This document shows, piece after piece, positions 1 through 14,498 of a stretch of DNA of 14,498 bases. The stretch lies in NCBI GenBank assembly GCA_963804955.1, contig CAWDSQ010000004.1, forward strand, positions 1 through 14,498. The letters are read 5' to 3'. The translations under genes were made by a program, and so were the position numbers. Below the pieces are notes generated by a model. The model was not told the origin of the DNA. It did not search any database and was given only the letters and a program-made list of their open reading frames with translations. Within the stretch, counting starts at the first letter, position 1. The number at the start of each line of letters is the position of its first letter. This stretch comes from an uncultured delta proteobacterium (GTDB taxonomy: Bacteria > Desulfobacterota > WTBG01 > CAIYCZ01 > CAIRTM01).

Positions 1-140
1 GCGCCGGCCATGGTATTGTGGTCTGTTATGGCAATTGCGGCGATGCCGAGGCGCCGGGCTGCTCTCTCGATTTGTTTCGGGCTCAGGCGCGCGCACAGCG
101 AGTGGCTTGTGTGAACATGCAGGTCAACCTTTATTTTCAT
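1..140 (-). CDS. PHP-domain metallophosphoesterase, N-terminal part (runs off the left edge)
   Basis: Not in the ORF track. Manual translation from ATG at 140: MKIKVDLHVHTSHSLCARLSPKQIERAARRLGIAAIAITDHNTMAG, containing the PHP motifs DLHxHT and AITDHN. Confidence 0.9.
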   Translation of the reverse strand, partial: MKIKVDLHVHTSHSLCARLSPKQIERAARRLGIAAIAITDHNTMAG

Positions 141-145
141 GCTCG

Positions 146-382
146 CTACAGCTCCTGCTGAACCCGGTCGATAAGCGCCTGCATTGAAGAGTGAAATGCC
201 GGGCACCGCGGACAGGTATCGTGCAGGTAGCTCTTCCACTGCAGCTGTTGCTCCCGGCTCATTGCTTTGAGTTCCGGCAGCCAGTCGTATTCCCAGCAGC
301 TTTTGTCATGGGTAAGCGCCGGGCAGGGAATGCCTTTTTTTGCCATGCAGGTTGGATTCAACTTGCTGCACTGATTTGCCAT
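146..382 (-). CDS. Small cysteine-rich hypothetical protein (78 aa, 6 Cys; CWE and CxxC motifs), probably metal-binding
   Basis: GGAG RBS about 6 nt before the ATG; tightly packed between co-directional neighbours (gaps of 16 and 5 nt); C5/C12/C20/C29 plus CPRC. Confidence 0.7.
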   Translation of the reverse strand: MANQCSKLNPTCMAKKGIPCPALTHDKSCWEYDWLPELKAMSREQQLQWKSYLHDTCPRCPAFHSSMQALIDRVQQEL

Positions 383-398
383 GGTCTGCTCCCGAATA

Positions 399-926
399 TT
401 ATGAAGTTTTTTTTATATGCTTCAGGTCAAAGTGATCCCGCAGACGGTTTGCCGCCGTGAGCAGATCACCGTCGCGGCCCACTGCTTTAACCAGTTGCCC
501 GGTAGACAGGTGCAGTAGCTGAGCTGCAGTGCTCAGACTCCCTCTGGAGGCAAAAAGCGCATCAAGCACGGCCGCGCACACCTGCGGATACAGCGGGTTC
601 CGGGCGTTTATCCGCACGGGTACGTCAGCAGAAAAAATTTCCCGCACGCTTTCGTGAAGCATAAAATTTACGCTTCGCACCTGCAGAGCAAGGGCCATAC
701 GGAGCCGGCCCAAAGCTTTGTTTTTATTTTCGTGCTGCGACCTGCGTTCTTCGCCCGTAACGGTCACGCCCGTGGGGAGATGCGTCAGCCGCACGGCGCT
801 ATAGGTGCGGTTGCGGTGCTGGCCGCCCGGCCCCGAAGCTATATAGGTATCCACGCGACACTGCTGCAGCAGGTGCCCGTCATCAGAGGCTAGCATGTTC
901 AAAGCCCCGCCCTCACGCACAATCAT
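399..926 (-). CDS. Peptide chain release factor-like protein (GGQ peptidyl-tRNA hydrolase domain with a C-terminal helical/HTH-like extension)
   Basis: [23 protein letters not shown]...[10 protein letters not shown] is RF-1 domain 3; codon-recognition domains are absent. Start placed at ATG 926 (AAGGA just upstream) rather than TTG 995. Confidence 0.85.
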
Positions 927-1000
927 TTCCTTCACGCCCGGCCCCGCTGAAAAACGCTTTAAGCCCCTGCCCGGCAGGGCAGCCAACGGCTTCAACTAAA

Positions 1001-1029
1001 AGAGTAGCTGTATTATGATGGGGTTGCAA
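1001..1029 (-). promoter_or_regulatory. Possible sigma70 promoter for the release-factor-like/Cys-rich/PHP operon
   Basis: Minus strand TTGCAA-17 nt-TACTCT, about 75 nt upstream of ATG 926. Confidence 0.35.
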
Positions 1030-1116
1030 TAAAAAATTGTCCTTTGGCCAAAATCCGGGGGGCAGCAAAACCAGGGGTCAGTATTCAGAAGCCGGCAGTA
1101 AGAAAGTATGGAAAGA

Positions 1117-1165
1117 AGTTCGGTGTTATGAGTTCGGTGTTGGGAGTGAAAAGTTCAAGGTTAAA
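1117..1165 (+). repeat. Degenerate heptamer tandem repeat
   Basis: agttcgg tgttatg agttcgg tgttggg agtgaaa agttcaa ggttaaa; includes an exact AGTTCGGTGTT repeated at 14-nt spacing. Confidence 0.6.
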
Positions 1166-1190
1166 AAAGGGAAAGTTTGAAGCGCAGGGA

Positions 1191-1204
1191 TCCGCCGTGG
1201 CGGA
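1191..1204. repeat. Short palindrome TCCGCC-GT-GGCGGA (small dispersed palindromic element or terminator-like hairpin)
   Basis: Perfect 6-bp inverted repeat followed by a T-rich tract on the + strand. Confidence 0.4.
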
Positions 1205-1283
1205 CGGATTTCTTTTTTAATGGACTGGTAGAATATCCACGGATAGATTGATGCTGAGGCGAAAATACCGGCATTGAAAAAAA

Positions 1284-1541
1284 TCATTCATCGTATGGTA
1301 AAAATTTTTCAATAATTCCGGTAGTCATACGAGAAACCCGGTGAAATATTGATGGCTGCGGGCGATATGGTTTGGGCAGCATGTCAAGTGCAATTTCAGA
1401 CTCGTCTCGGTCAAATTCAAAAGTATCAGAAAGATACTGTATAATCTGTTCTCTGTTCATGCCGCGCATGTGTAAGGCATAAATTGAATATAATATTTTT
1501 CGTGCATAAATGTCCTGATGTTCTATAAAATCATAAAACAT
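1284..1541 (-). CDS. Hypothetical protein (85 aa), AT-rich
   Basis: Only sizeable ORF in the interval; protein-like helical composition; no recognisable motif. Confidence 0.55.
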   Translation of the reverse strand: MFYDFIEHQDIYARKILYSIYALHMRGMNREQIIQYLSDTFEFDRDESEIALDMLPKPYRPQPSIFHRVSRMTTGIIEKFLPYDE

Positions 1542-1777
1542 AATTTTATACCCACTTTAAGCTAATAAAGAAGACTTGTTTAATATATTTAGTGATTATA
1601 AAAAAAATTTCAACCCTTTTTTGCAACAATCTGCAATTTTATCCGAATTATACCAGTACGCAGACTACAGTATCCGTGCAGAGCGTCAAATTGATTACTG
1701 ATTAAAGTATGATTAGCTCGGAGGTGATAGCGGTGCACGACTCAGGATCGCAGACGCTCGTGCATTAAAAACAGTGT

Positions 1778-3319
1778 TTATTTTCCCGGTCGGATGGCAG
1801 GGATATAACCGGGTTCTATCGTCTGCAGGACTTCGCTGCTGCGCAATGGCCGGGTCGCCCGTCCGGTCATGCTCAGTAGAAATGTTGCGCTGCTCGTCTG
1901 GTTGAGACCTCCATGTGAAGAGGCCATGTCGATAAAGGCTCTAAAGAGCGGATATCCGCTCATGTATCCATCATTGAGAGTTATCATCAGGTCGGACGGG
2001 CAAATGACAATGCCGTGAAAGGCATCCCATATCCGTGGGGGAGCATTGGGCCATTCATGGTCAGCCGTTGCTGCAAACCAGTCGTCTGCTGAGGCATACC
2101 CTTCCGCATCAGCTTTTCCGGCCATAGCCAGCAAAGCGTGTATCGGCTGGTAGCCCAGTACATCCCGGTCAATGACAACATAGCGTAGTTTGCCGCCTTT
2201 TTTTTCTATGGCTGCCGAGCCCCTGTTGTCACGCACGATAACCCTGTCGCCTTGCATATATAGTGCAAGCTGCATCTGAGTCTTCTGCAGCAGTACGTCG
2301 GCAACAGCCGCCGGTCGCTGCGTATGTATGCCCGCATAGGTGACCAGGCCTTCCGTGTCGATAACGATATCGGTATCCGACTGGATTTTGTCCCTCACGG
2401 TAAATCCTGCCTCGTTTAAAATATTTTTTATAGATACGAACTGCGACGGCATGAGGTTGTGGCCGTGGTCGGCCAGTATGGAAATTTTAAGGGCCCCCTG
2501 ACGCTCCCATAAAAGCTGAAGGCACAGACGCTCTATTTCGCGCAGGCAGTCATCGACGCCCTGCCTGCCATATCTGCAGACCATGGCTGCGGAACTGACA
2601 ACATACGCCAGCGTTACCCGGTCCGTGCTTTGGTCGAGGGTCTGCTTGATGCTTTCCAATTCGCGGTTGAATGTCTTGCGCGTGTTTACAAACCCCAGCC
2701 CTTCCCTCATATAGTCGGCGTTGTAGTGCAGGCAGCGCTGCCAGGCCGTCTCTCCGCCCGTGGCAGCATCCCAGAAACGATTACATATCCGATTGATGCG
2801 CTGATCGTAGAAATAATTGTTTGTTCCCGCCAGCGGAGGGGCCTGCAGTATCTGGTTGAAAATAACGGCGCTCAGCGTCGGAAAGGGCGCGATCACCTTC
2901 TGAGGTGGTGGAAACCAACTGAAATGGCCGGCAGTGTAATAATCGAGCATGCACTGATAGGGGATCGAATCCAACAGAATAATCAGATGGGGGACACTGT
3001 CTGTCTCATAGTCATTAATGCGGTATATCCGGGCATAGCGGCCGTCTTCTTTATTGGCATAGGCAAGAGCGGTCGTCCGGTTGTCAGAATCGGCCTGCAG
3101 CGCAAAGTCGGCCTTGCCATTGCCGTTGACATCATAGCGGATTTCCTGCGGCGTTCGGGAAAGCGGGGCCTCGGGAAAAAACAGGTTTTTTGAGGAGACG
3201 CACCCCAAAGTGCAGATGCATAGGATTACCGTGAGCACCTTTGAAACCAGCCGTATAAAAACAGCCTGGTCTGAACCAGCTCTTTGCTTCTTAACCAAAC
3301 CTGCAATCTCCCGTATCAT
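1778..3319 (-). CDS. Alkaline phosphatase superfamily (NPP/phosphodiesterase-like) lipoprotein
   Basis: Hydrophobic signal with lipobox-like TLGC; LIILLDSIPY (metal Asp), PFPTLS (Thr nucleophile position), ILADHGH and SSHGG motifs; Ca-binding-like loop YDVNGNGKAD. Confidence 0.75.
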   Translation of the reverse strand: MIREIAGLVKKQRAGSDQAVFIRLVSKVLTVILCICTLGCVSSKNLFFPEAPLSRTPQEIRYDVNGNGKADFALQADSDNRTTALAYANKEDGRYARIYRINDYETDSVPHLIILLDSIPYQCMLDYYTAGHFSWFPPPQKVIAPFPTLSAVIFNQILQAPPLAGTNNYFYDQRINRICNRFWDAATGGETAWQRCLHYNADYMREGLGFVNTRKTFNRELESIKQTLDQSTDRVTLAYVVSSAAMVCRYGRQGVDDCLREIERLCLQLLWERQGALKISILADHGHNLMPSQFVSIKNILNEAGFTVRDKIQSDTDIVIDTEGLVTYAGIHTQRPAAVADVLLQKTQMQLALYMQGDRVIVRDNRGSAAIEKKGGKLRYVVIDRDVLGYQPIHALLAMAGKADAEGYASADDWFAATADHEWPNAPPRIWDAFHGIVICPSDLMITLNDGYMSGYPLFRAFIDMASSHGGLNQTSSATFLLSMTGRATRPLRSSEVLQTIEPGYIPAIRPGK

Positions 3320-3348
3320 ATGGCTGTTGTATGCCAGCGGAATTCAAT

Positions 3349-3377
3349 TTGCAAGAACGATGTGTGTTTGGTACTGT
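3349..3377 (+). promoter_or_regulatory. Possible sigma70 promoter facing the lipid cluster
   Basis: TTGCAA-17 nt-TACTGT with TG extended -10, in the divergent intergenic region. Confidence 0.3.
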
Positions 3378-3557
3378 CTGTCCTTAAATCGCCTTGCGCA
3401 GAGTGGAGGGAACTTTTTTTCTATACGCGCATGCATGACAGGCCAAAGTACGGTTGATTTGTCATTCTGTGCGCAACGGTTGCCATCTTCATATTTATCT
3501 GTTCTGCGCAACTTGCTAGAAGAAGGTCTCATGAAGTCATAAAGGATTAAAAACAAC

Positions 3558-3665
3558 TGTCATTGCGAACGAAGTGAGCAATCTCTGCCGCGTCGCGGAG
3601 TTTATCCTGAGCAGTGCCGAAGGGCTCCTCGCAAGGCGTACCGATGCTTTTTACAAAGGCATCAA
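3558..3665. repeat. Composite/nested REP-like palindromic element
   Basis: GTCATTGCGA(3559)...GCAATCT...TCGCAA(3629) outer arms enclose ATCCTGAGCAGTGCCGAAGGG (3604-3624); followed by hairpin GATGCTTTT-TAC-AAAGGCATC (3643-3663). Confidence 0.6.
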
Positions 3666-3755
3666 AATTAAGTTGCACAGGACAGCTGTAAAAAGCTGAA
3701 AACAGCGTGCCCGGGGATACCCGCTTAAGAAAAATATTGAGAGAATAGAGCTCCC

Positions 3756-5108
3756 GTGACAAAACTACTACTGGTCTCTGCCAATCAGTATACCGACCCC
3801 TCACCTGTTTACCCGCTGGGCATTTCATATCTTGAAACCTATCTGAGAGAGAAAATACCCGGGCTCGAGACTCAGTTGTTTGATTTTGCGGTAAACAGCC
3901 CCGCCGATTATGCGGATTATCTGCAGACATATACTCCTGACTATGTCGGCATTTCGCTGCGCAATGTTGATGATGTGAATGTTTACCGGCAGGAAAGCTT
4001 CTTCCAGCACTACAGCGGCATCATCGACACCACGCGGCGGTGCAGCCGGAGCATTATCATTATCGGCGGGCCCGGCTATTCCATCTATCCCCGCCTGCTT
4101 TTTGAATATCTGAAGCCCGACTTTGCCATTTATGGGGAAGGCGAAGAGAGTTTTTATGAACTATTGAAGGCTCTGGAGAGCAAGGCGGACTATGCTGCTG
4201 TTGAAGGGCTGGTCTATACAGACAATAGTGCGACCCTGGTGAATGAAAAGAAGCGCTATTGCCCTGATCCGAAAGTCTGCTTTAACAAAAGGCTTCTTGA
4301 CTTTTACTGGAAGCACGGCGGCATGCTCAATATACAGACCAAACGCGGCTGCCCGTATGCGTGCATCTATTGCACCTATCCTTTAATTGAAGGTAGCACG
4401 GTCCGTACGCTCGATGCCGGCAGAGTTGCCGACACGCTGGCGGACCTTTATTTCAAAAAAAAGATCGACTATGTTTTTTTTACCGATTCGGTCTTCAATA
4501 TCAATAATGCCTACAACCTCGAGCTGGCCGAGCGCATGATCAGCAAAAAGATGGGCCTCAAATGGGGCGGCTATTTTAACTTTTCAAACCTCGATGAAAA
4601 ATTATTGCGGGTTTTTAAGAAGGCGGGCCTTGCCCACATTGAGTTCGGCACAGACGCGCTGTCTGATACCACTCTCAAGAAGTACGGTAAACATTTTACG
4701 GTTGCTGATATACTTGACGTATCCAAGACATGCAACCGGCTAAAGATCGACAGCGCCCATTTTCTTATACTGGGCGGCTACGGAGAAACTGAAGACACTC
4801 TGAATGAAACCTTTGAAAACTCAAAGAAAATAGAGCGGACCGTGTTCTTCCCTTTTGTAGGCATGCGCATGTATCCCGGTACAAAGCTTTCTGCCCTTGC
4901 ACTTCAGGAAAACAAAATCAGCAAAGACAATAGTCTGCTTCATCCCACGTACTATGTCTCGGATAAAGTGAATATTTCCCTCTTGAAAGAAAAGGCAAAA
5001 AAAACCGGCCGGCAATGGATATTCCCCGATGAGGATATGACAGGGGTGAAGCAGCGGCTGCGATCACGAGGCAAAAAGGGTCCGCTCTGGGAGTATTTGC
5101 TGCGTTAG
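3756..5108 (+). CDS. B12-binding radical SAM protein, lipid-biosynthesis type (TIGR04072-like)
   Basis: N-terminal cobalamin-binding domain (LLVSAN..P.PVYPLGISYL, VGISLRNVD, IIIGGPG); RGCPYACIYC (CxxxCxxC); FFTDSVFN, IEFGTD, GGYGET. GTG start. Confidence 0.9.
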   Translation: MTKLLLVSANQYTDPSPVYPLGISYLETYLREKIPGLETQLFDFAVNSPADYADYLQTYTPDYVGISLRNVDDVNVYRQESFFQHYSGIIDTTRRCSRSIIIIGGPGYSIYPRLLFEYLKPDFAIYGEGEESFYELLKALESKADYAAVEGLVYTDNSATLVNEKKRYCPDPKVCFNKRLLDFYWKHGGMLNIQTKRGCPYACIYCTYPLIEGSTVRTLDAGRVADTLADLYFKKKIDYVFFTDSVFNINNAYNLELAERMISKKMGLKWGGYFNFSNLDEKLLRVFKKAGLAHIEFGTDALSDTTLKKYGKHFTVADILDVSKTCNRLKIDSAHFLILGGYGETEDTLNETFENSKKIERTVFFPFVGMRMYPGTKLSALALQENKISKDNSLLHPTYYVSDKVNISLLKEKAKKTGRQWIFPDEDMTGVKQRLRSRGKKGPLWEYLLR

Positions 5109-5272
5109 CAGTTTGTTGAAAAAATTATTAACTACAGTTAACTTCAGGCTGTTCAAAAATGCTCAGATGCAAGGCGCGCGCAATTATGCGAATGAGGCGT
5201 ACTTTTTCGTACGCCGCAGTGAAGCATGATGAGCGCAACGCAGCAGATGGGCGTTTTTCAACAGCCTGCTAG
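5106..5272. mobile_element. MITE-like non-autonomous element with IS-type terminal inverted repeats
   Basis: Left end TAGCAGTTTGTTGAAAAA (5106-5123), a second left-end copy CAGGCTGTTCAAAAA (5145-5159), right end TTTTTCAACAGCCTGCTAG (5254-5272); internal hairpin GGCGTAC-N6-GTACGCC; no transposase. Confidence 0.75.
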
Positions 5273-5295
5273 GACCTCTTGCGGAGAACTTTATA

Positions 5296-5324
5296 TTGAC
5301 ACCCAAAAGCCCGGGGCCTATATT
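5296..5324 (+). promoter_or_regulatory. Sigma70 promoter for methyltransferase-U32
   Basis: TTGACA-17 nt-TATATT, about 40 nt upstream of ATG 5364. Confidence 0.7.
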
Positions 5325-5363
5325 CGCCTCATCCCAAAACGAGATTCTATCCGTCGAGACCCA

Positions 5364-6026
5364 ATGACTAAAGCAAGGGTTCCAGAGACAAAAGCTACGC
5401 TTTCAGGTCGCGTCTATGCCGAAGCCTATGACCGGATGCAGGCAAATCTCCGGGAGAAGGGATGGCTTGAGACAGAGGAGCTTCTGCTCAATGGCAGTGT
5501 GACTGGCTGTGCTCTGGAGGTCGGATCGGGACCCGGCTATCTCGGGCTGGACTTGCTGCTGCAAACGAAGGATACCCGCCTCATCGGTCTTGACATAAGC
5601 CCGGACATGGTCGCGATAGCCAGGAACCACATGCAGGAATTAGGCCTTGCCGGCCGCGCCGAATACCTTCTTGGCTCTGCTGAGGCCATTCCCTTTGAGG
5701 ACAATGCCTTTGACGCGGTATTTACCAGCCGCTCGCTGCATGAGTGGCTTAATCCATGTACGACATTCACCGAGCTTTGGCGGGTGCTCAAGCCCGGAGG
5801 AAGATTATATGTGTCCGATCTGCGCAGGGACCTGTCACGCTCGGCCTGCAACTTTCTTGAGCAAAGGGTGAATTCCGAAGAAATCAGGGAAACTCTCCGG
5901 GCCTCAATCGGCGCTGCCTATACCAGGACAGAGGTGCTGGCTGTCCTCACTATGGCAGGACTCGCCGATTGCGAGGTTGTCGAAACATCGTTCGGTTTGC
6001 GAGTGACGGGAATGAAGCCGGTTTGA
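5364..6026 (+). CDS. Class I SAM-dependent methyltransferase (UbiE/Methyltransf_11-like), 220 aa
   Basis: ALEVGSGPG (motif I), IGLDISPDM, AEAIPFEDNAFDAV, SLHEW, RVLKPGG. The ORF-track start at 5226 lies within the MITE and upstream of the promoter, so ATG 5364 is preferred. Confidence 0.9.
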   Translation: MTKARVPETKATLSGRVYAEAYDRMQANLREKGWLETEELLLNGSVTGCALEVGSGPGYLGLDLLLQTKDTRLIGLDISPDMVAIARNHMQELGLAGRAEYLLGSAEAIPFEDNAFDAVFTSRSLHEWLNPCTTFTELWRVLKPGGRLYVSDLRRDLSRSACNFLEQRVNSEEIRETLRASIGAAYTRTEVLAVLTMAGLADCEVVETSFGLRVTGMKPV

Positions 6027-6048
6027 TCCGCGCTTTTGGAGAACGGCC

Positions 6049-7242
6049 ATGAAATTGAGTGTTGCTGCTAATTGGGACATCGAACTTCTTGACGGACTCG
6101 CGCATATTCCCGAGGTGGCTTCGGTCTATGCAAAGCTGCCCTATGACCTCGTGGGTGGAGGCAGGGCTGGCTCCGTGCTGCCTTCAGTGGACCTTGCTGC
6201 TGCCGCCGCTTATATCCGGGAAGCCCATAAGCGCGGCTTGTCGTTCAGTTACCTTCTTAATGCCCCGTGTCTGGGGAATCTTGAGCAGACGCAGGAGGGC
6301 AAAGAGCGCCTGCTCGCGTTTGTCGGTCAATTAGTTGAACTCGGGGTTGACAATGTGTCGATCTCGAACTTAGCGCTTGTGTCGCTGGTTCGGCGCAACT
6401 ACCCGGACTTGAGCATCCGCGGAAGCGTGCTTAGCTGGCCCACCAATCTGCCCAGATTGAAGTATCAGGAATCCCTTGGCGTCGATCCGCTGCTCCTGCC
6501 ATACAGTGAGTTTAACCGCGACTTCCCGGCGCTTGAGCGCGTCAGCGCAAACCTCTCATGCGGCATTGTGCTTTTTGTCAACATTGCATGCATCTATCAT
6601 TGCCATTACCTGGCCGAGCACGCATGCAGCGTGGGGCATGCCTCCCAGGAGAATCAGAACGGCAAAAAAACGAACTCCCTGCTTGATTCCTACCTGTGGC
6701 AGTGTACCCGCCGGCGATTAGTACAGCCGGAGCTCTTCCTCTCAAGCCGCTGGATCCGTCCGGAGGATTTACACCGGTACGAGGCCCTGGGATTCGAGGA
6801 GTTTAAGATCATTGATCGATCGCGCTCCACGGCATGGCTTTTGCGTGCCACAAAGGCCTATGCTTCCCGGCATTATGACGGAAACCTGCTTGATATTCTC
6901 TCCATCGAGATGCTGGGAGATCCTAACGGCTTTCACCCAAGTATCGAGGAGCAGAGCCGAAAAAGCCTGTTCCAGCTCGACAGGGAAGAGCGGCGCCTGC
7001 AGCTTCGAATGTTCAGGTTGCGGCAGCGCCTGCTGGCTCTTAACGTCACCATCGACAACGGACTGCTTTCGGATTTTTTAGAGGGTTTCGGGAAAATCCG
7101 GTGCGAGGAGACCTTCTGCGATGACTGCCGCTACTGCCATCGCTACGCCGAGCGCGCTGTGCGCTTCGATCGCGACGAAGCGGCGCGCCTCGTGGCTGAA
7201 ATCGACGAGCTCGTCGACGATTTCATGACAGCAAAGATGTAA
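6049..7242 (+). CDS. Peptidase U32 family protein (Fe-S, putative O2-independent hydroxylase)
   Basis: YIREAHKRGLSFSYLLNAPC, FNRDF, ACIYHC...C, WIRPEDL..YE..G...FKIIDR; extra C-terminal CEETFCDDCRYC; GGAGA RBS. Confidence 0.85.
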   Translation: MKLSVAANWDIELLDGLAHIPEVASVYAKLPYDLVGGGRAGSVLPSVDLAAAAAYIREAHKRGLSFSYLLNAPCLGNLEQTQEGKERLLAFVGQLVELGVDNVSISNLALVSLVRRNYPDLSIRGSVLSWPTNLPRLKYQESLGVDPLLLPYSEFNRDFPALERVSANLSCGIVLFVNIACIYHCHYLAEHACSVGHASQENQNGKKTNSLLDSYLWQCTRRRLVQPELFLSSRWIRPEDLHRYEALGFEEFKIIDRSRSTAWLLRATKAYASRHYDGNLLDILSIEMLGDPNGFHPSIEEQSRKSLFQLDREERRLQLRMFRLRQRLLALNVTIDNGLLSDFLEGFGKIRCEETFCDDCRYCHRYAERAVRFDRDEAARLVAEIDELVDDFMTAKM

Positions 7243-7336
7243 CCCCCGGCTCTCCTGTTGTATCTTTTCTAATTTTTTTAGTGCATGTTCATAACGCACC
7301 GTCTGCCGCAGCCTCATGAAGGAAGACGCTGCCGTG

Positions 7337-7365
7337 TTGACAGTGGGGGGCTTTTTGTCTATAGT
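7337..7365 (+). promoter_or_regulatory. Sigma70 promoter for membrane protein-ACP1-KS/CLF-deacetylase
   Basis: TTGACA-17 nt-TATAGT, about 43 nt upstream of ATG 7408. Confidence 0.7.
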
Positions 7366-7407
7366 GTGGCGACAATCGCAAATTATACATGCAGGGCGCT
7401 TGAAAGC

Positions 7408-7803
7408 ATGATGAAGAAGCTGGTTCGAAACGGCCTGGAAAAGCTTGCACGCAAGCCGTATATCCAGCGCATTCTGCAGGAGGAGCTTGACCTGCGCTGC
7501 CTTAAGCGTCGGCCTACGGCCCGCGAGCAGTTCGGCATTGTCCTTGTGCTGTTCAGCTATGTAATCGGTTGGCCGGCGGTTGCTTTGTTCGGATTTCTCG
7601 CCCTGTATCTCAAGCAACCCCTGGTTCTTATCATCGGCGGGCCGCTTATTTACGGTTTTTCACATATCGTTTTTTTTGCGGGTATGTATATTGCCGGAAA
7701 GGATTACACCAAACTGTTTATAAAATGGTCCGTTAAAAAAATATGCGAAAAGATTGCACCCGGCGCTCCGGTGCTGCCGGCAGATGCTGCAAAAGCCCAG
7801 TGA
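7408..7803 (+). CDS. Small membrane protein of unknown function (about 131 aa, 2 hydrophobic segments)
   Basis: Basic N-terminus, then FGIVLVLFSYVIGWPAVALFGFLALYL and LVLIIGGPLIYGFSHIVFFAGMYI; start placed downstream of the promoter. Confidence 0.75.
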   Translation: MMKKLVRNGLEKLARKPYIQRILQEELDLRCLKRRPTAREQFGIVLVLFSYVIGWPAVALFGFLALYLKQPLVLIIGGPLIYGFSHIVFFAGMYIAGKDYTKLFIKWSVKKICEKIAPGAPVLPADAAKAQ

Positions 7804-7822
7804 TGCATACATGGAAGACCAC

Positions 7823-8089
7823 ATGGAAGAACTTATACAGGAACTCAAAGTCAAAATTGTCGAGACGCTCAATCTCATCAGCATAACCCCGGACAGCATC
7901 GATGCAGACGCCCTGCTTGTGGGCGGTGAGCTGGGCCTTGACTCCATCGATGTGCTTGAGCTGGTGATGATGGTTGAAAAGGATTATGGCCTTCGGATCG
8001 ACAGCAAGGAGCTCGGCATCAGGGTCTTTGCCTCCCTCAAGGCCCTGGCGGACTATATCCACAAGAACCGGCCGGAGACGAGCCCTTGA
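7823..8089 (+). CDS. Acyl carrier protein 1 (aryl-polyene/flexirubin-cluster type)
   Basis: MEELIQELKVKIVETLNL..ITPDSID....GGELGLDSIDVLELV; phosphopantetheine Ser in GLDSID. Alternative start at 7811. Confidence 0.92.
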   Translation: MEELIQELKVKIVETLNLISITPDSIDADALLVGGELGLDSIDVLELVMMVEKDYGLRIDSKELGIRVFASLKALADYIHKNRPETSP

Positions 8090-10247
8090 GCAGCATGCGG
8101 GTATTTGTCACCTCTCTCGGAATCATAAGCCCTCTCGGCAAAAACGCCATAGAAACATGTGCAGCTCTCACAGAATCGACATGCGGACTCGCGCCGCTTT
8201 CTCTCTTCCCCTCCTCCGTTGAGCCTCCCCTGCCGGCAGGGGAAATCAAATGCCTTCTGTCCGATGATGTCGCCCCGCACGCACGGCCTTGCGCTTATTG
8301 CAGCCCGTGAGGCTATGGCCGGTGTCGCCGGCCCCCCCGATGCCATCGTTGTGGGTGTTACAACGGGCGGCATGCCCGCAAGCGAGCCCCTTTTAAAAAG
8401 CGGCGCTGCCGACCCAGGCATGTATTCCCTGCATGGGGCTGGAACGGTTGCCCATTATGTGGCTGAAGCGCTCGGCTGTCAGGGCCCGGTGCTGACCGTG
8501 TCAACGGCCTGCTCCTCAAGCATGGCGGCTTTGAAATTAGCAGTTGAGCTTCTGCGAAGCGGCAGGGCGCGGCGTGTGCTTGCCGGAGGCGCTGACGGCC
8601 TGTGCCGTTTGACCTATTATGGTTTTCATTCCCTGCAGCTGGTCGATCCGGCAGGCGCCCGGCCTTTTGATAAAGACCGGCGGGGCATGAGTCTCGGTGA
8701 AGGAGCTGCCATGCTTTTCTTAGAGGCTGCCGCGGAGCCGCCGGCAGGGGCGCTGGCTGAGGTTCTTGGCGTTGGCCTGAGCTGCGATGCCTATCACCCC
8801 GCAGCTCCTCACCCTGATGGCGACGGGCGCTCTCCGCGCCATGCAGCAGGCCCTTTCTGCGGCTGGACTGCAAGCCTCTGAAATAGAGTATATTAATCTG
8901 CACGGCACCGGAACCCCAGACAATGATCTGGCCGAGGCGCGGGCAGTGCATGCCCTCTTCGACCTGTCCCCCCTGCCGCCGGTTTCATCTCTTAAGGGCG
9001 CCATCGGGCATACCCTGGGCGCAGCCGGTGCGGTCAATGCGGCAGTGTCTGTGCTGTGTATCAGCCACGGCATCATACCGGCCAATACCGGCTGCCGCGA
9101 ACCTGATCCGGCTGTGCACCTAAAGCCTGTTGCTGCGCCGCTGCGCAGGCCCGTTGCAGCTGGTGCTTTCCAATGCTTTCGGCTTTGGCGGCAACAATGC
9201 ATCAATCGTTCTCGGTAACCCAGCCGCAGCGAGAGTACCCGTGCACAACAGAAGCGGGAGCACTGTTTTTTCCGTGCTTGGCAGCGCCTGCCTCACCGGC
9301 GGGGGCAATCTGTATGCAGACCATGAAGCGCCTTGCCTCAGGAGAAACTATCTGCGGCATGGCACCGGCACAGGCCATTATGCAGGGGCTTCAAGAAAGC
9401 GCCGTGCGGCGGCTCAAGCGTCTGCCGCGCATGGTCCTGTCGCTTGCCGCAGCTGCCTGCGAAGGCCGGGATGGGCCGGCCGCAATATGTTTCGGCACCG
9501 GCTGGGGCGGGCTGTCTGAAACGAATGATTTTCTCGAGAGGCTCTTTGCAACGCAAGAGCGCTTTACCAGCCCCACCGATTTTATCGGCTCCGTGCACAA
9601 TGCCCCGGCAGGCCAGGCTGCCATGCAGCTGCAGGCACAGGGTGCGAACCTGACCCTTACGGATGGGGATTATTCTTTTGAGCAGGCGCTTTTCAGCGCT
9701 GGCCTGATTGCCCATGAGGCAGACGGGCCCCTGCTGGTGATGGGCGCTGATGAATACCATGAAAAGCTTACCCCGCTTTTTGACCCATCGGCAGCCTGCG
9801 GTGTAGACGGCGGCGGCGCTCTGCTGCTTCGCCCTTCGGCCGCGGCAGAGGCACTGAGCATCACCCCTGTTTTTCTTTCAAATGCACTACAGCCTGAAGA
9901 TGCTCTGCACCTGCTTATCCATGAGCTGGGAGGGCCTGTGGCTGTGGGAAAAAAGTTCGGCGCCATCTTTGCAGGCATTCCGGCAGCCCGGTCGTGATAT
10001 GGCCCGGGAGCAGCTCAGGCTGTTTCTGGAGATGACAGGCTGCACCTGTCCGGTCATTGATTATAGAAAAGTGACCGGCGAGTTCGCCTCGGCCTCGGCT
10101 GTGGCAGCAGTCATAGCCCTGGAGTGTGTCAGGGCAGGAGCATTGCCCGCAGCCGTGCATCCGGCCGGCCCGTGCCTTCTGCACAACAAAGCCGTACTGC
10201 TGCTGGGGTTGGGCCGGTGCATAACTGCTGTGGAGATACGGGGTTGA
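8086..10247 (+). CDS. Beta-ketoacyl-ACP synthase fused to a chain-length-factor domain (KS-CLF, about 718 aa once repaired); five +1 frameshifts as sequenced
   Basis: Six consecutive ORF pieces give VFVTSLGIISPLG / STACSSS / DAYH / INLHGTGTPDND / KGAIGHTLGAAG / SNAFGFGGNN, then CLF motifs RRLKRLPRM, FGTGWG, SPTDFIGSVHNAPAG, SFEQAL, YRKVTGEFASASA. Shifts near 8271, 8826, 9162, 9313 and 9988. TTG start overlaps the ACP1 stop, with GGAG upstream. Confidence 0.85.
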
Positions 10248-11073
10248 TGGATATGAACAATCCAGCTCCATCACCGCTTCTGCCGGTGGTAAAACTCGCC
10301 CTGCTGTGCGCCTGCGCATCAATGGCTCTTGCAATGATCAATGAGGTGCTCTGCGTGCTGCCGCTTGCGGTATTTGTCAGTTCATGCCTCGCAGCTCCGT
10401 TTTTGCCGCGGTACGGATTTTTTCTGCCGGTCATCAGCCGGGGATGCACGGGCAAAAACATGGTTGCCCTGACATTTGATGACGGCCCTGATCCTGCAAC
10501 AACCCCCCGGCTTCTTGAACTGCTTGAGAAATACAAGGCGAAAGCAGCCTTTTTTGTCATTGGAGAAAAGGCGCAGCGCCATCCGGAGCTTATGCGGGAT
10601 ATTATCGCCTGCGGCCATGCTGTGGGCAATCATTCCTACAGCCATGACGTGCTGCTCATGCTGCGGTCCCGCCGGACACTGGCGTCGGAAATCCGCACGG
10701 CCCAGCAGGCCATGAGCGCCTTTGACATACGACCGCTTGTTTTCAGGCCGCCCGCAGGAATCACCAATCCGAAACTGGGAAGCGTTTTAAGACAACAGGG
10801 CCTGCAGTGTCGTCACCTTCAGCTGCCGCGGCTTTGATGCCGGCAATCGCCGCATCAAGGGGCTGGCTGACAGGATACTGCGGAAAGTCCGGCCTGATGA
10901 CATTATTCTGCTGCATGATTGCATGCCCCGAGGGCCTGCCACGGTGGACATGTGGCTTGACGAGGTTGAAGCTCTTCTTGCGGGGCTTGCGGAAAAAAAT
11001 CTTGCTCCGGTGCCGCTTGAACAATCTGATCGGCAGGCCCGTCTGCAGCAGTCTGGTTGAAAAAGCTTTGTAA
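10247..11073 (+). CDS. Membrane-anchored polysaccharide deacetylase (CE4/NodB), about 274 aa once repaired; two +1 frameshifts as sequenced
   Basis: ATG overlaps the KS-CLF stop (TGATG); hydrophobic N-terminus; ALTFDDGP, GNHSYSH, FRPPAG; after a shift near 10809, VVTFSCRGFDAG...DIILLHD; after a shift near 11025, LIGRPV. Confidence 0.85.
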
Positions 11074-11095
11074 ATCTTGCTTTGCAGCAATTCAA

Positions 11096-11124
11096 TTGAC
11101 TCTGCACATGGTTTTTCATATACT
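11096..11124 (+). promoter_or_regulatory. Sigma70 promoter for lipoprotein-dehydratase-ACP2-radical SAM pair
   Basis: TTGACT-17 nt-TATACT, about 47 nt upstream of TTG 11171. Confidence 0.65.
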
Positions 11125-11170
11125 TGCGTACACTTGTCAGAACGATTAAATACCGTGATAGGGGGATCAC

Positions 11171-12043
11171 TTGAAAGCATATTCCGTGAGCTGGGGTGTC
11201 GCAGCGCTGTTTACTCTGGCATGCATGGCGACGGGCTGCGGGCACTTCAACAAAGCAGTGTATGAAAACTCATTTACCACCCTTCAGGAAAGCGCGGTCA
11301 AATACAGCGATCAGGGCAGATATGAAGAAGTGGTCTATATTACCCGGGCGCTGCTTGATTCCGAGCCAGACAATTATGATGTCCGACGACTGCAGGATAC
11401 GGCCGTAGCAGCCCAGCCGGCCACGGAGGCCATGGTCAATAAGTCGCTGTTTGGGGCGAATTTAAGCGACCGGATTACCGATGAAAACTTTCCCGTACTG
11501 GGAAGCATTTTGCTGTATATTCCCAATCGTATTCTCGATTTCATAGATCTTATTACGGTTGAAGCTGGACTTTGCCTAGGTATCGGCGCAAAAGCTCAGG
11601 CAACAGACGCCTTCAGCTTGGGCCTGCAGGGATCTGCGGGCGAGGCCATGTTCGGCCTCGTGGGCCGCAATTTGTCGGTACGCGCAACCCAGGAGGAGTT
11701 CTTCCATCTGCTGCCGGTCGGCAGCGCCTATCTGTCCGAGGCGCGAGCCTATACTGCCGGGACATACGGGATGATATCAAGCCAGGGCGGGCTGAAACTG
11801 CCCACAGATCATATTTATCAGAGGGCGCGTGACTACTGGGCCATCGGCGCACAGGCCGAGGCGCTGAGTGTTGCGGCCAATGTGAAATTTCACCCCATAG
11901 AGGTTTTTGATTTTATAGCGGGTTTTTTCTTTTTTGATCCACTCAAGGATGATATCGGCTCGACACGCCCTATCCATGTAGACCTTACGGATAATGAAAC
12001 CGAGGCTTTGGATAATCTGGCGTATCAAACGCGATTTCGGTAA
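11171..12043 (+). CDS. Lipoprotein of unknown function (290 aa)
   Basis: TTG start with GGGGGA RBS; signal peptide ending in lipobox-like ATGC; helical TPR-like N-terminal part; Gly/Ala-rich hydrophobic core bounded by NRILDFID and EVFDFIAGFFFFDPLKDD. Confidence 0.75.
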   Translation: MKAYSVSWGVAALFTLACMATGCGHFNKAVYENSFTTLQESAVKYSDQGRYEEVVYITRALLDSEPDNYDVRRLQDTAVAAQPATEAMVNKSLFGANLSDRITDENFPVLGSILLYIPNRILDFIDLITVEAGLCLGIGAKAQATDAFSLGLQGSAGEAMFGLVGRNLSVRATQEEFFHLLPVGSAYLSEARAYTAGTYGMISSQGGLKLPTDHIYQRARDYWAIGAQAEALSVAANVKFHPIEVFDFIAGFFFFDPLKDDIGSTRPIHVDLTDNETEALDNLAYQTRFR

Positions 12044-12048
12044 AGGCC

Positions 12049-12447
12049 ATGCCGCAAGCCTGGCAAAAATTTGAAATTAGCAGTATACATGAAGACAGCC
12101 TGGAAGCCCGCGGGGCAGCTCCTGCCGGGTCCCCATGGTTTGACGGGCACTTCCCCGGCCAGCCGATACTGCCCGGCATCGCCATGATTGCCATGGCCTA
12201 TGACGCTGCGAGGGAAAAAGAGGCGAACGGGGGGCATCGCATGCGGCTGAAAGCTGTAAAAAGGGTACGGTTTAAAAAGCCGGTCCGGCCTGATGAGCCC
12301 TTTACGCTGGCGCTCAAGCGCGAACAGAAGGAAAGCGGGGTCTTATATGCTTTCACGATTCTGCTGGCCGGCGAGGCGGCTTGCACCGGCATCGTACATC
12401 TTGAGCCGCTTGCCGGATACTCTGATAATAAAACAACTGTCTGTTAA
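12049..12447 (+). CDS. FabA/FabZ-like (ApeI-like) hotdog-fold acyl-ACP dehydratase subunit
   Basis: SPWFDGHFPGQPILPG and VKRVRFKKPVRP motifs. Confidence 0.85.
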   Translation: MPQAWQKFEISSIHEDSLEARGAAPAGSPWFDGHFPGQPILPGIAMIAMAYDAAREKEANGGHRMRLKAVKRVRFKKPVRPDEPFTLALKREQKESGVLYAFTILLAGEAACTGIVHLEPLAGYSDNKTTVC

Positions 12448-12460
12448 TGAAGGAGGTTGA

Positions 12461-12733
12461 ATGTCTGCTGGTATTAATGAAAAAGAGCTTCAGCTGCGTG
12501 TCGCGCAAATCATAATCAGCGAACTGAAGCTGCAGGATATCACAGCGGAAACGTTTGATCCTGATCTTGATCTTGTGGATGAAATCGGTATCGACAGCAT
12601 GGACCTTGCCACCATCGTGCTGGTGCTGCAGGATGAGTACGCCGTCAAGATCGATGAGGACGACTATCCCAAACTGCGCGCCATACGCCTTATAGCGGGC
12701 TATATTCAGGAGCGGCTTCAGGCAAAAGCCTGA
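12461..12733 (+). CDS. Acyl carrier protein 2
   Basis: AAGGAGG RBS; acidic 90 aa; DLVDEIGIDSMDLA with phosphopantetheine Ser. Confidence 0.92.
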   Translation: MSAGINEKELQLRVAQIIISELKLQDITAETFDPDLDLVDEIGIDSMDLATIVLVLQDEYAVKIDEDDYPKLRAIRLIAGYIQERLQAKA

Positions 12734-12748
12734 TACGCCCATCGCATT

Positions 12749-13815
12749 ATGAGCGCAGAACAGCCCTCCTCGACCCCGAAATACAGATTTGCCGACCTGC
12801 TTGCAGAGCCTGCCGTGCGCGAACGCTGGGAGCGGGTGCGCACGTATTTCTTCCTGCGCGAATCAACCTATGACATGACCCACCGTTGCAATATCCGGTG
12901 CGACGGCTGCTACTACTATGCCGGCGACAAGCAGTTTACAGCCGACAAGGGCGACCCTCAAGCCTGGCGCAAGCTTATGCGCGATGAGAAAGCACGCGGC
13001 ATCACCTTCGTAGTGCTGGCCGGCGCCGAGCCTGCCCTTGTTCCCGAGCTTCTGCAGGCCTGTTATGATGAGATTCCGCTTGGCTGCATTGCCACCAACG
13101 GGGTGAAGCGTATCGAACAATCGGTGGGGCACAAGATTCACGTGTCGGTCTGGGGAAATGACGCCACAAGCCTGCGGGTGCGAAAGCAGAAGGATATGCT
13201 TGAGAAGCAGCTAGATAATTACCGGGGCGACAGCCGGACCGTGTTTGTGTATACCTTTACGCATGACAATATCGATGAAGCAGGCCCGGTGATCGACTAT
13301 CTTGCAGCACATGACTGCAAGGTCACCTTCAATGTGTTCTCTGCGCCGGTCGGCTACACCGGAGCATTGCGGCACACGCAAGAGTCGCTTGCCCGGATGC
13401 GAAGGAGCCATGCTTGATCTGCTTGGCCGCATATCCGCGGCAGATGCTTTTTTCGCCCTACAGCGCTGTTGCCCACTCGCACCGGCTGGGGCTGCACGGG
13501 CTCTACGGCTGCCCGTATCCGCGCATGAACCATTCAGCGGATATCGGCCTGGGCCGTTCGTTCCGGCAGTACCGCTCGGATCTTACCTGGGACCGCAGCG
13601 CGTCCTGCTGCGTGCCTGATACGGACTGCGCCGATTGCAGGCATTATGCCGCAGGCAGCGCCGTGGTAACCTCAAAGCTCTATCGCCATGCAACCGATCC
13701 GGATACCTTCAAAGCATGGCTTGATTATGTGGATACCTATCTTGCCGTCTGGGTCACGGGGTATGAAAAAGGCGAGAACCTCTGCCGCGGTCCTGTTGAG
13801 CCGCCGGAGGGGTAA
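12749..13815 (+). CDS. Radical SAM protein A with C-terminal auxiliary Cys cluster, about 354 aa once repaired; two +1 frameshifts as sequenced
   Basis: YDMTHRCNIRCDGCYYY, LAGAEP, IATNG, VSVWG; shifts near 13405 and 13425 give ARMRR-AMLDLL-AAYPRQMLFSPY; C-terminal GCPYPR...CCVPDTDCADCRHY. Confidence 0.85.
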
Positions 13816-13824
13816 GTGTTTGCG

Positions 13825-13855
13825 AGTGCGCAGGGCGCACTATTTAATTTATTTT
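13825..13855 (+). terminator. Terminator-like hairpin between the two radical SAM genes
   Basis: AGTGCGC-AGG-GCGCACT (7-bp stem) followed by ATTTAATTTATTTT, starting 10 nt after the stop. Confidence 0.35.
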
Positions 13856-13903
13856 AGGAGCGCATGTATGCGCGATGATTTCGCGGCTGAAGCCGCTCCT
13901 ACA
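13855..13903. repeat. Inverted REP doublet of the GTAG family
   Basis: Right copy TCGCGGCTGAAGCCGCTCCTACA is the reverse complement of TGTAGGAGCGGCTTCAGCCGCGA; degenerate left copy TAGGAGCGCATGTATGCGCGA. Confidence 0.7.
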
Positions 13904-13933
13904 GTCTATAGCCCACAGCCTAAAGATTAAACT

Positions 13934-14498
13934 ATGCAACTCATAAGCTCAATGCTCGATCCTGACTGGTATGCGCGGTACAAGCGCATAGCAAGCCTCA
14001 ATATTCGCAGCTCCATCTACGATGTTACAAACCGCTGCAACCTGCGGTGCAAGGGCTGCTTCTTTTTTTCATCCGATGAAGATCAGGCCGCGCCCGAGGA
14101 GATGAGCATTGCAGCCTGGGAAGCCTTCGTGGAGCGGGAAAAAGAGCGCGGCGTCAATCTTGCCATTCTCATCGGCGGCGAGCCCACGCTCTATATGGAC
14201 CGCATCGACGCCTTCTACAAGCGCCTGCCCACCTACTGCGCCACCAACGGCCAGATCAAGGTGCCGCGCGACCGGTTTCCCGATCTGATGGTGGGCATAT
14301 CGCTCTGGGGCGATGAGGAGGATGAAAAGCTGCTGCGCGGCAAGGATACCTTCGCCGTTTCAAGCCGTAATTATGCGGGCGACCCCTACACGTACTATCT
14401 CTACACCATCACCCCGAAACAGCTGGGCCGCATCGACCGCATGGTTAAGAAGATACAAGATGTCGGGCTGAAAGTGCATCTGCAGCTTCTGTCAAATG
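13934..14498 (+). CDS. Radical SAM protein B, paralogue of A (runs off the right edge)
   Basis: Not in the ORF track. 188 open codons: MQLISSMLDPDWYARYKRIASLNIRSSIYDVTNRCNLRCKGCFFF...AWEAFVEREKERGVNLAILIGGEP...CATNG...ISLWG. Confidence 0.92.
   Translation, partial: MQLISSMLDPDWYARYKRIASLNIRSSIYDVTNRCNLRCKGCFFFSSDEDQAAPEEMSIAAWEAFVEREKERGVNLAILIGGEPTLYMDRIDAFYKRLPTYCATNGQIKVPRDRFPDLMVGISLWGDEEDEKLLRGKDTFAVSSRNYAGDPYTYYLYTITPKQLGRIDRMVKKIQDVGLKVHLQLLSN

Follow-up and report, generated by a model that had tools for sequence, protein, structure and literature searches.

In a 14,498 nt stretch of DNA from an uncultured delta proteobacterium (contig CAWDSQ010000004.1, positions 1 to 14,498; the whole stretch is referred to below as the window), two adjacent genes for radical S-adenosylmethionine (SAM) enzymes, A and B, follow the gene of a dedicated acyl carrier protein (ACP), ACP2. 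Judging by their sequences, A and B appear to be an anciently duplicated and obligately co-inherited radical SAM pair, placed in the very centre of an operon core. That this pair is tied to genes of ACPs and fatty acid synthesis (FAS) is strongly supported by the genomic neighbourhoods of its homologues, while the mechanistic reading, in which both enzymes would process an ACP-bound chain, looks plausible. The cluster as a whole belongs to the “ladderane-type”, aryl-polyene-like variety of type II fatty acid synthesis (FASII) known from Kuenenia and Desulfotalea, and the window is another, frame-damaged, instance of this known uncharacterised cluster type.

Radical SAM genes A and B

Gene A (12749-13815, plus strand) starts 15 nt after the stop codon of ACP2; this spacing, noticed in an earlier sequence-only reading, and the gene coordinates were confirmed in the window sequence. 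The gene is read in three pieces. Piece 1 in frame 2 (12749..13405, +) encodes the core barrel with the CX3CX2C motif, which reads CNIRCDGC, and the GAEP motif, and is 87% identical to P0002, an intact relative of 354 aa. Piece 2 in frame 0 (13407..13430, +) encodes AMLDLLGR between two single-base insertions, and piece 3 in frame 1 (13432..13815, +) covers the C-terminal domain with CC-x5-C-x2-C and ends with the stop codon at 13813-13815. Thus, the split of A that had been suspected is accounted for by two insertions, at ~13402-13406 and ~13431, which shift the frame from 2 to 0 and then to 1. They were placed by three-frame translation against intact relatives and by DNA alignment with the related loci L001, L002 and L006. 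Intact 354-aa relatives of A read ...ARMRRAM(L/F)DL...YPRQMLFSPYS..., and the window matches them only across frames 2, 0 and 1.

Gene B (13934..14497, +) is cut by the window end, as had been supposed: 188 N-terminal amino acids out of ~332 are available (relatives have 332 aa), and this part is unbroken. It carries the radical SAM motif CNLRCKGC, scores 37.4 bits with the Pfam Radical_SAM model (cut-off 29.5) and shares 97% identity with P0121. With PF04055, the fragment of A reaches 26.2 bits, just below the same cut-off of 29.5, and no Pfam match was obtained for its C-terminal piece 3. In place of the usual GGEP the sequence-only reading had noted GAEP in A, and this is a trait of the whole family, since 26 A-family sequences all have A91, G92, A93, E94 and P95 (P0002 numbering); GGEP of B is likewise invariant in 26 B-family sequences. 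The C-terminal cysteine cluster attributed to A by the same reading is present, but lies downstream of the frame break, in frame 1.

Relatives of both proteins are numerous. For A, 2007 of 2220 candidates were retained at E ≤ 1e-3, and the best 120 of the 2007, the window's own fragment excluded, are 65-87% identical and have 345-389 aa in all but five cases. PF04055 is the precomputed label on most, though not all, listed relatives of A, and the names given to the best 120 are merely “radical SAM protein” or “MoaA/NifB/PqqE/SkfB family”; a protein-cluster search with P0002 returned solely its own nameless clusters. For B, 1652 relatives were found among 2124 candidates; the best 120 of them are 77-97% identical, nearly all exactly 332 aa long, and B relatives bear C-terminal CC-x6-C-x2-C.

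Every pair of motifs by which A and B had been aligned earlier was found in the window translations, and the two proteins proved to be true, diverged paralogues, 27-30% identical along the whole length. P0002 and window B align over 176 aa with 30% identical residues (E 1e-26); between full-length relatives of the two proteins identity is 27% over 322 aa (E 3e-33), and the alignment is colinear, the C-terminal cysteine motif included. The maximum-likelihood tree places the A-like clade as sister to the B-like one (support 98/93), from which one can assume that the pair derives from one old duplication. When 1.84 billion cluster representatives were searched in full with HMMER, 431 proteins reached E ≤ 1e-3 and 78 reached E ≤ 1e-30, and by these counts A and B appear to form a small branch, distinct within the radical SAM superfamily. 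Its more distant members include proteins of Acidobacteriota and Alphaproteobacteria.

The following positions (P0002 numbering) are invariant in the 56-member alignment of this branch: C47, C51, C54, G92, E94, C286, C293 and C296 in 56/56 sequences, and likewise N117-G118 and R145. The CX3CX2C triad together with a motif of the GGE type (G and E in 56/56) is what is expected from members of the radical SAM superfamily (PF04055). CX3CX2C and C-terminal CX6CX2C are kept in both A and B, and each of them adds a second Cys adjoining the first C-terminal one (CC) and one further upstream Cys. Each protein therefore has a predicted SAM-cleaving [4Fe-4S] site (CX3CX2C) and a predicted C-terminal auxiliary Fe-S site (CX6CX2C with the extra Cys), and with these motifs conserved both look catalytically competent. 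An independent hint comes from P0364, a metagenomic protein of 724 aa that carries, fused with its B-like radical SAM domain, a TubC_N docking domain of polyketide synthases (PKS) or non-ribosomal peptide synthetases and a thioesterase domain; the B-like domain shares 29% identity with B along the full length (E 5e-52), and this fusion may tie the fold to carrier-protein thioester chemistry.

Genomic neighbourhoods of the pair

The alignment of the A family was used to scan 185,579 species genomes. At least 592 stretches were matched, and at least 587 of them encode a relative. Synteny was counted in the best 80 of the at least 587 loci, hence in close relatives of A, by BLASTP comparison of the window proteins with all open reading frames (ORFs) of the 80 loci, and the denominators given below are loci with enough sequence. 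The 80 loci come from metagenome-assembled genomes (MAGs) of Syntrophales, Smithella, Desulfobacterales, Spirochaetota/Leptospirales and Myxococcales, and also from cultured non-anammox organisms, namely Desulfosarcina variabilis str. Montpellier (L078), Desulfosudis oleivorans (L044, a MAG assigned to this species) and Smithella sp. SCADC (L021).

B lies directly downstream of A in 73/73 loci. An ACP gene was found upstream of A in 71/75 (69 by script and 2 rescued by tblastn), a homologue of the dehydratase (DH) gene upstream of A in 69/73, and a ketosynthase (KS) gene downstream of A in 66 of 67 loci, with L026 as the exception. The sequence-only reading had proposed that A and B serve acyl chains on ACP2 and had fixed in advance that homologues lying apart from ACP and FAS genes would speak against it; as these counts indicate, homologues nearly always adjoin such genes. 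The distance from the stop codon of A to the start codon of B has a median of 46.5 nt (n = 72), and in 8 cases the genes overlap by 1-4 nt, i.e. the spacing of the two genes is operon-like.

In 33 loci with 10 kb available on both sides the conserved core includes A (33), B (33), DH (32), ACP2 (30), KS2 (32), KS3 (31), a thioesterase of the 4HBT family (31), a fusion protein of ~511 aa with a phosphopantetheinyl transferase (PPTase) domain (31) and PlsY (23). Its order is DH-ACP2-A-B-KS-KS-thioesterase-DH/PPTase-PlsY, usually with a gene of the TIGR04072 type nearby. Other genes vary in the same 33 loci: the TIGR04072-type B12 enzyme was found in 25, the deacetylase in 26, ACP1 in 24 and the fusion of a ketosynthase with a chain length factor (KS-CLF) in 17. 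Still rarer are the second B12 radical SAM gene (12), the phytoene-desaturase-like flavoprotein (10), a fourth KS (9) and PlsC (8). A transporter of the MMPL type is also among the cluster parts. The A/B pair is thus the most constant element of the cluster, being 65-97% identical across phyla.

Locus L006 illustrates the parts. Its TIGR04072 gene (6816-8162) scores 388.3 bits against the cut-off of 360, and a cluster of the TIGR04072 type is recognised by this B12-radical SAM enzyme above the cut-off, together with a dedicated ACP, a FabZ-like DH and multiple FabF-like KS on one strand, all of which are present. The protein of ~511 aa (19216-20748 in L006) combines a weak PKS-dehydratase-like N-terminus with a C-terminal 4'-phosphopantetheinyl transferase domain, and is probably a dedicated PPTase for the ACPs of the cluster. 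Three stand-alone KS genes downstream of B (12123-16897 in L006), including KS2 and KS3, keep the Cys-His-His triad; in the KS-CLF fusion of L006 only the C-terminal half is devoid of the active-site Cys.

Several minor features touch the pair itself or its flanks. A terminator-like GC hairpin with a T-rich tail (13825..13841, +) is situated 10 nt past the stop codon of A, inside the 118-nt spacer between A and B; it is a consensus match only, with 4 such sites in the region against 2.7 expected in shuffles. L001, the closest relative, has a 153-aa ORF without a family inserted between A and B. In the same locus a Phd/YefM antitoxin and a PIN-domain toxin (5486-6177) are inserted as a pair between two KS genes downstream of B.

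Frame breaks in the window

Disruption of A is not a solitary event in this contig, as at least 8 frame breaks occur within 8086-13431, i.e. in 5.3 kb. With proteins of the intact relative L006 as tblastn queries, the matches of the 727-aa KS-CLF fusion pass through frames 1, 2, 3, 1, 2, 3, which gives six pieces, and those in the deacetylase gene shift from frame 2 to frame 3. No break falls in the B12-radical SAM gene (3756-5108), DH, ACP2 or the available 188 aa of B. Since the breaks are spread along the contig, the split of A is more likely a feature of data quality or decay than of the biology of the pair, and its two single-base insertions imply that A either was mis-sequenced or is inactive in the source organism.

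Family assignment and structural models

The sequence-only reading could not assign A and B to any characterised family, and they indeed remained outside of such families: no NCBIfam model matched the A- and B-family proteins of L006 at E 1e-10. For window A the best NCBIfam match was tetraether synthase Tes (rSAM_GDGT_ether, NF045702; E 4.8e-8, residues 42-216). Membership in the Tes/GDGT-MAS family was rejected, as A and B scored 32.1 and 30.8 bits, respectively, against the cut-off of 450. Membership in the SPASM group (PF13186/TIGR04085) was rejected as well: no Pfam SPASM match was obtained, and full-length A and B of L006 match only PF04055. The SPASM motif is a pattern of seven Cys binding two auxiliary clusters, while the C-terminal part of A and B has three universally conserved Cys and two more in both proteins. 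Maturases of ribosomally synthesized and post-translationally modified peptides (RiPPs) were rejected as a family for A/B on score or motif grounds.

The AlphaFold model of an A relative has a mean predicted local distance difference test (pLDDT) of 75 and a pTM of 0.81, and is weak in two Cys loops. Its best fold matches in the PDB are SuiB, SkfB, AbmM, DesII and anSME at TMq 0.37-0.44, GDGT-MAS was also matched by fold, and these matches appear to reflect the generic radical SAM core alone. By sequence, the best PDB match of A was SkfB (E 3.8e-9) and the second was GDGT-MAS (7tol, E 1.6e-3). Enzymes of the twitch type (BtrN, MoaA, SkfB) have a shortened C-terminal domain that binds a single auxiliary Fe-S cluster close to the active site; from the comparison with them, SkfB and MoaA emerged among the top matches, with the Cys-bearing loop modelled at pLDDT <50.

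Proposed function and its alternatives

A/B occupy a fixed position, flanked by the dedicated ACP and hotdog dehydratase on one side and by two ketosynthases on the other, with a PPTase and glycerolipid acyltransferases in the same operon. The best explanation overall, and one that we consider somewhat better than an even bet, is that A and B act on an acyl intermediate tethered to ACP2 by oxidative radical chemistry. Its substrate, the type of chemistry and any complex between A and B are what we infer from the genes, their motifs, paralogy, conservation and synteny described above.

In this scheme the substrate would be a short enoyl or polyenoyl thioester bound to ACP2 and produced by KS/CLF and the hotdog dehydratase. 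A and B would each remove a hydrogen atom by means of the 5'-deoxyadenosyl radical, and the second electron could be accepted by the auxiliary C-terminal cluster. Such a role of the auxiliary cluster is established for SPASM/twitch dehydrogenases and cross-linkers. The net result would be an oxidative step on the chain, either formation of a C-C bond (ring or branch) or oxygen-independent desaturation, after which the downstream KS pair may elongate the chain, and the product may join glycerolipids via PlsY or PlsC.

A number of observations weigh against this proposal. Neighbourhood by itself does not equal mechanism, and even the neighbourhood is not uniform: no ACP upstream of A was detected in L011, L053, L060 and L065, and three of these four are also without DH. 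In the window itself A is frame-broken. No fusion of A with B was found, i.e. no relative of A was registered at 621 aa or above in the range searched (621-2000 aa), although this is weak evidence. In the A model, confidence is low around the auxiliary cluster (pLDDT <50 at residues 256-292), and the model of B, built on an alignment of 26 sequences, is poor (pLDDT 52). Tes and Mss act on finished lipids and are not known to use ACP thioesters. Among published data, in the parts available for the sources cited, those lipid radical SAM enzymes of a 2026 review whose substrates are known work mostly on isoprenoid-based lipids (PMC13459092), and two radical SAM proteins of Kuenenia stuttgartiensis, kuste3342 and kuste3343, were undetectable when expressed in Escherichia coli (PMC4790861). 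The likeness of their surroundings, FabZ-ACP-(FabG)-rSAM-rSAM, to DH-ACP2-A-B is one of gene order. Finally, no characterisation of an enzyme of the A/B type was found in the available literature, with subscription-only papers outside the search.

The main rival supposes that A/B modify finished lipids, namely membrane acyl chains bound to phospholipids or glycerol, so that ACP2 would merely supply the chain; the models for it are the tetraether synthase Tes/GDGT-MAS and bacterial membrane-spanning lipid synthases. Its attraction is in the similarity of A to Tes, its best NCBIfam match, and to GDGT-MAS, which came up both as the second PDB sequence match and as a fold match; besides, PlsY and PlsC-type acyltransferases belong to the cluster, and membrane-spanning lipid synthases are described, in the available part of the source, as linking two fatty acids through their alkyl tails (PMC13159169). 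We regard this rival as unlikely, since 32 bits against a cut-off of 450 means that the common core alone matches Tes, A/B stand between ACP2 (71/75) and elongating KS genes (66/67) rather than beside the acyltransferases, and one B-like relative carries a fused PKS docking domain together with a thioesterase. Much less room is left for protein- or peptide-modifying maturases, RiPP-like or acting on the carrier protein, which would only happen to lie in one operon with lipid genes. In their favour, the RiPP maturases SuiB and SkfB are the nearest solved structures, and ACP1 weakly matches TIGR04069, an ACP-related family of peptide maturation (E 4.5e-4). However, TM-scores of only 0.41-0.44 correspond to a generic radical SAM core, neither a RiPP recognition element nor a SPASM domain was detected by Pfam, no gene of a precursor peptide was noticed in the conserved core, and all conserved neighbours are genes of FAS/PKS or lipid assembly, which makes this option highly improbable.

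An alternative of another kind concerns the source organism: the pair may be a decaying pseudogene remnant there, in an inactivated cluster where A yields no functional enzyme. Two frame-shifting insertions in A, five breaks of KS-CLF and a single break of the deacetylase gene would be natural for such a remnant, the more so that the insertions in A lie outside long homopolymers. Yet the aligned pieces are free of in-frame stop codons and retain 69-87% amino-acid identity to intact relatives, no damage is seen in the B12-radical SAM gene, DH, ACP2 or the 188 aa of B, and the pattern fits indel errors of assembly equally well; we hold decay to be possible, with the odds against it. Returning to the action on ACP2-tethered chains, its narrower form can also be imagined, in which A/B would be an obligate two-subunit machine forming a C-C bond on an unsaturated acyl chain of ACP2, to give a small ring or a branch in mid-chain. 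The “ladderane-type” clusters of anaerobes would then make undiscovered carbocyclic or branched membrane fatty acids, and the same pair would provide an early step of ladderane assembly in anammox bacteria; so specific a picture is a decidedly long shot. Acids with a mid-chain methyl branch were also considered as the product of the cluster, but this idea was dropped, as no paper was found that connects 10-methylhexadecanoic acid with a radical SAM enzyme.

Other genes in the window

All members of the lipid gene cluster, as annotated with Pfam and NCBIfam, are co-directional on the plus strand of the window. The first is the B12-binding radical SAM gene (3756..5108, +), which matches TIGR04072, “lipid biosynthesis B12-binding/radical SAM protein”, with 406.6 bits (cut-off 360) and is a marker of the “ladderane-type” cluster. 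It is followed by a SAM methyltransferase (5226-6026, +), an ORF weakly resembling peptidase U32 (6049-7242, +), a small plus-strand ORF without assignment and ACP1, a phosphopantetheine-binding protein of the PRK09184 type (7754..8089, +; 76.9 bits against 70). Next come the KS-CLF fusion, composed of an aryl-polyene-type PRK09185 KS and a Ketoacyl-synt_2 CLF half (8086..10238, +, in six frame pieces), and the gene of the polysaccharide-deacetylase family (10298..11021, +; Polysacc_deac_1, E 1.5e-31) with a frame break near 10811.

The conserved core is opened by the ApeI/FabZ-like hotdog dehydratase, DH (12049..12447, +; Pfam FabA, E 9.1e-8; ApeI-like, E 1.6e-7). ACP2 (12461..12733, +; PP-binding, E 6.5e-8) is a divergent dedicated carrier protein with the phosphopantetheine serine in the motif DSM; it falls under the cut-off of every NCBIfam ACP model, the best score being 37.4 bits against 70, and its homologues are 58-92% identical.

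An ORF of 290 aa (11171-12043, +) fills the interval from the deacetylase gene to DH. It matched no Pfam or NCBIfam family and had no BLASTP homologue across the 80 related loci, so it looks like a lineage-specific insertion. Its N-terminus seems lipoprotein-like, judged from the translation alone.

The TIGR04072 enzyme of the window is only 33-46% identical to in-cluster copies of the relatives. In the window its gene is located upstream, beside the SAM methyltransferase and the weak U32-like ORF (3756-7242), and in the relatives it usually has KS-CLF or ACP1 on one side and the deacetylase or DH gene on the other. Neither the methyltransferase nor the U32-like ORF had a BLASTP match in any of the 80 loci. 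Outside the lipid cluster, the minus strand encodes a 197-aa protein with an RF-1 domain, PrfH/ArfB-like (399-995), and a 513-aa ORF without a family (1778-3319), situated in a low-GC stretch (GC 0.42 at 1001-2000).

Comparison with known systems

Literature data are given here as they stand in the available parts of the cited sources. FASII clusters of Kuenenia stuttgartiensis were described as containing “SAM radical”, phytoene-desaturase-like and deacetylase-like genes and many FabF paralogues (Rattray et al. 2009, PMC2649909). Synteny with Desulfotalea psychrophila was noted for the pairs Kuste3343/DP1855 and Kuste3342/DP1853, and similar clusters were mentioned in Geobacter and Pelobacter (PMC2649909). 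In Kuenenia the order is kuste3339 (FabZ), 3340 (ACP), 3341 (FabG) and two SAM radical enzymes, 3342 and 3343 (Javidpour et al. 2016, PMC4790861). Like A/B, kuste3342/3343 and DP1853/DP1855 are two neighbouring radical SAM genes beside a FabZ-like DH and an ACP in a specialised FASII cluster, and FabF paralogues, a gene resembling polysaccharide deacetylases, SAM methyltransferases and a phytoene-desaturase-like gene are likewise described for the Kuenenia cluster. The difference is in FabG, which in Kuenenia separates the ACP from the radical SAM pair and is lacking at this place in the window and its relatives. The hosts differ too: Kuenenia is an anammox bacterium, whereas the kept relatives of the window are MAGs of Syntrophales, Desulfobacterales, Spirochaetota and Myxococcales. 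No anammox records were met among 19 representatives and members of the A/B family looked up by name.

Anammox Cluster I, KustE3603-3608, includes amxACP, amxFabZ, two FabF, a phytoene-dehydrogenase-like protein and a B12-radical SAM enzyme (PMC10139942, bioRxiv 2026.05.19.726425). It shares with the window the TIGR04072 B12-radical SAM enzyme, the ApeI/FabZ-like DH, divergent ACPs and ketosynthases of the KS/CLF type, and relatives of the window add the phytoene-desaturase-like gene; in the available descriptions Cluster I is without a pair of the A/B type. KS2 and KS3 of L006 keep the Cys-His-His triad, unlike amxFabFmut of anammox bacteria, and the ketosynthases of L006, with only the C-terminal half of KS-CLF devoid of the active-site Cys, depart from the anammox pair amxFabF2/amxFabFmut (bioRxiv 2026.05.19.726425).

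Aryl polyene (APE) clusters have in common with the window and its relatives the ApeI-like DH, PRK09184 ACP, PRK09185 KS with Ketoacyl-synt_2 CLF, acyltransferases and the MMPL transporter. To our knowledge, APE clusters contain no radical SAM genes, and, unlike in APE clusters, no aryl-starter genes were noticed in the window. SPASM/twitch enzymes (SkfB, SuiB, anSME, MoaA) and GDGT-MAS/Tes resemble A and B in the partial TIM-barrel core and in extra C-terminal Cys ligands, but only the core can be aligned with them (TMq 0.37-0.44, 13-22% identity), and, instead of the 7-Cys pattern of SPASM, A and B have the CX6CX2C motif with 3 invariant and 2 family-specific Cys.

Of the enzymes of “ladderane-type” clusters, only FabZ, a methyltransferase and the FabF pair were found characterised in the available literature: amxFabZ (PMC10139942), the ladderane-cluster methyltransferase (PMC9821293) and amxFabF2/amxFabFmut (bioRxiv 2026.05.19.726425). 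Action of radical SAM enzymes on ACP-tethered intermediates is a standing published hypothesis (PMC2649909, PMC9821293), still presented as hypothetical in a review of 2026 (PMC13459092). The idea of ACP-tethered action of A/B is therefore not new and coincides with the mechanistic reading preferred here. What is new is the view, in numbers, of A-B as the unvarying centre of the cluster and the finding of the pair in cultured bacteria other than anammox, to which the sequence comparisons add an apparently small dedicated superfamily with the CX6CX2C signature and the likely origin of A and B as sister clades.

Clusters predicted as “ladderane” by antiSMASH occur in many non-anammox phyla with function unknown (PMC9902471), and ladderanes are reported in the available texts from anammox bacteria alone (PMC9902471, PMC10139942). 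The A/B cluster is encoded in at least 587 species-genome stretches, and the 80 kept are all non-anammox; instead of anammox Planctomycetota, the hosts of ladderanes, the closest loci represent Thermodesulfobacteriota, Syntrophales, Spirochaetota and Myxococcales. Occurrence of A/B in non-anammox organisms argues that their role is not ladderane-specific, and with the pair present in cultured carriers the question of the radical SAM step becomes approachable outside the uncultivable anammox bacteria.

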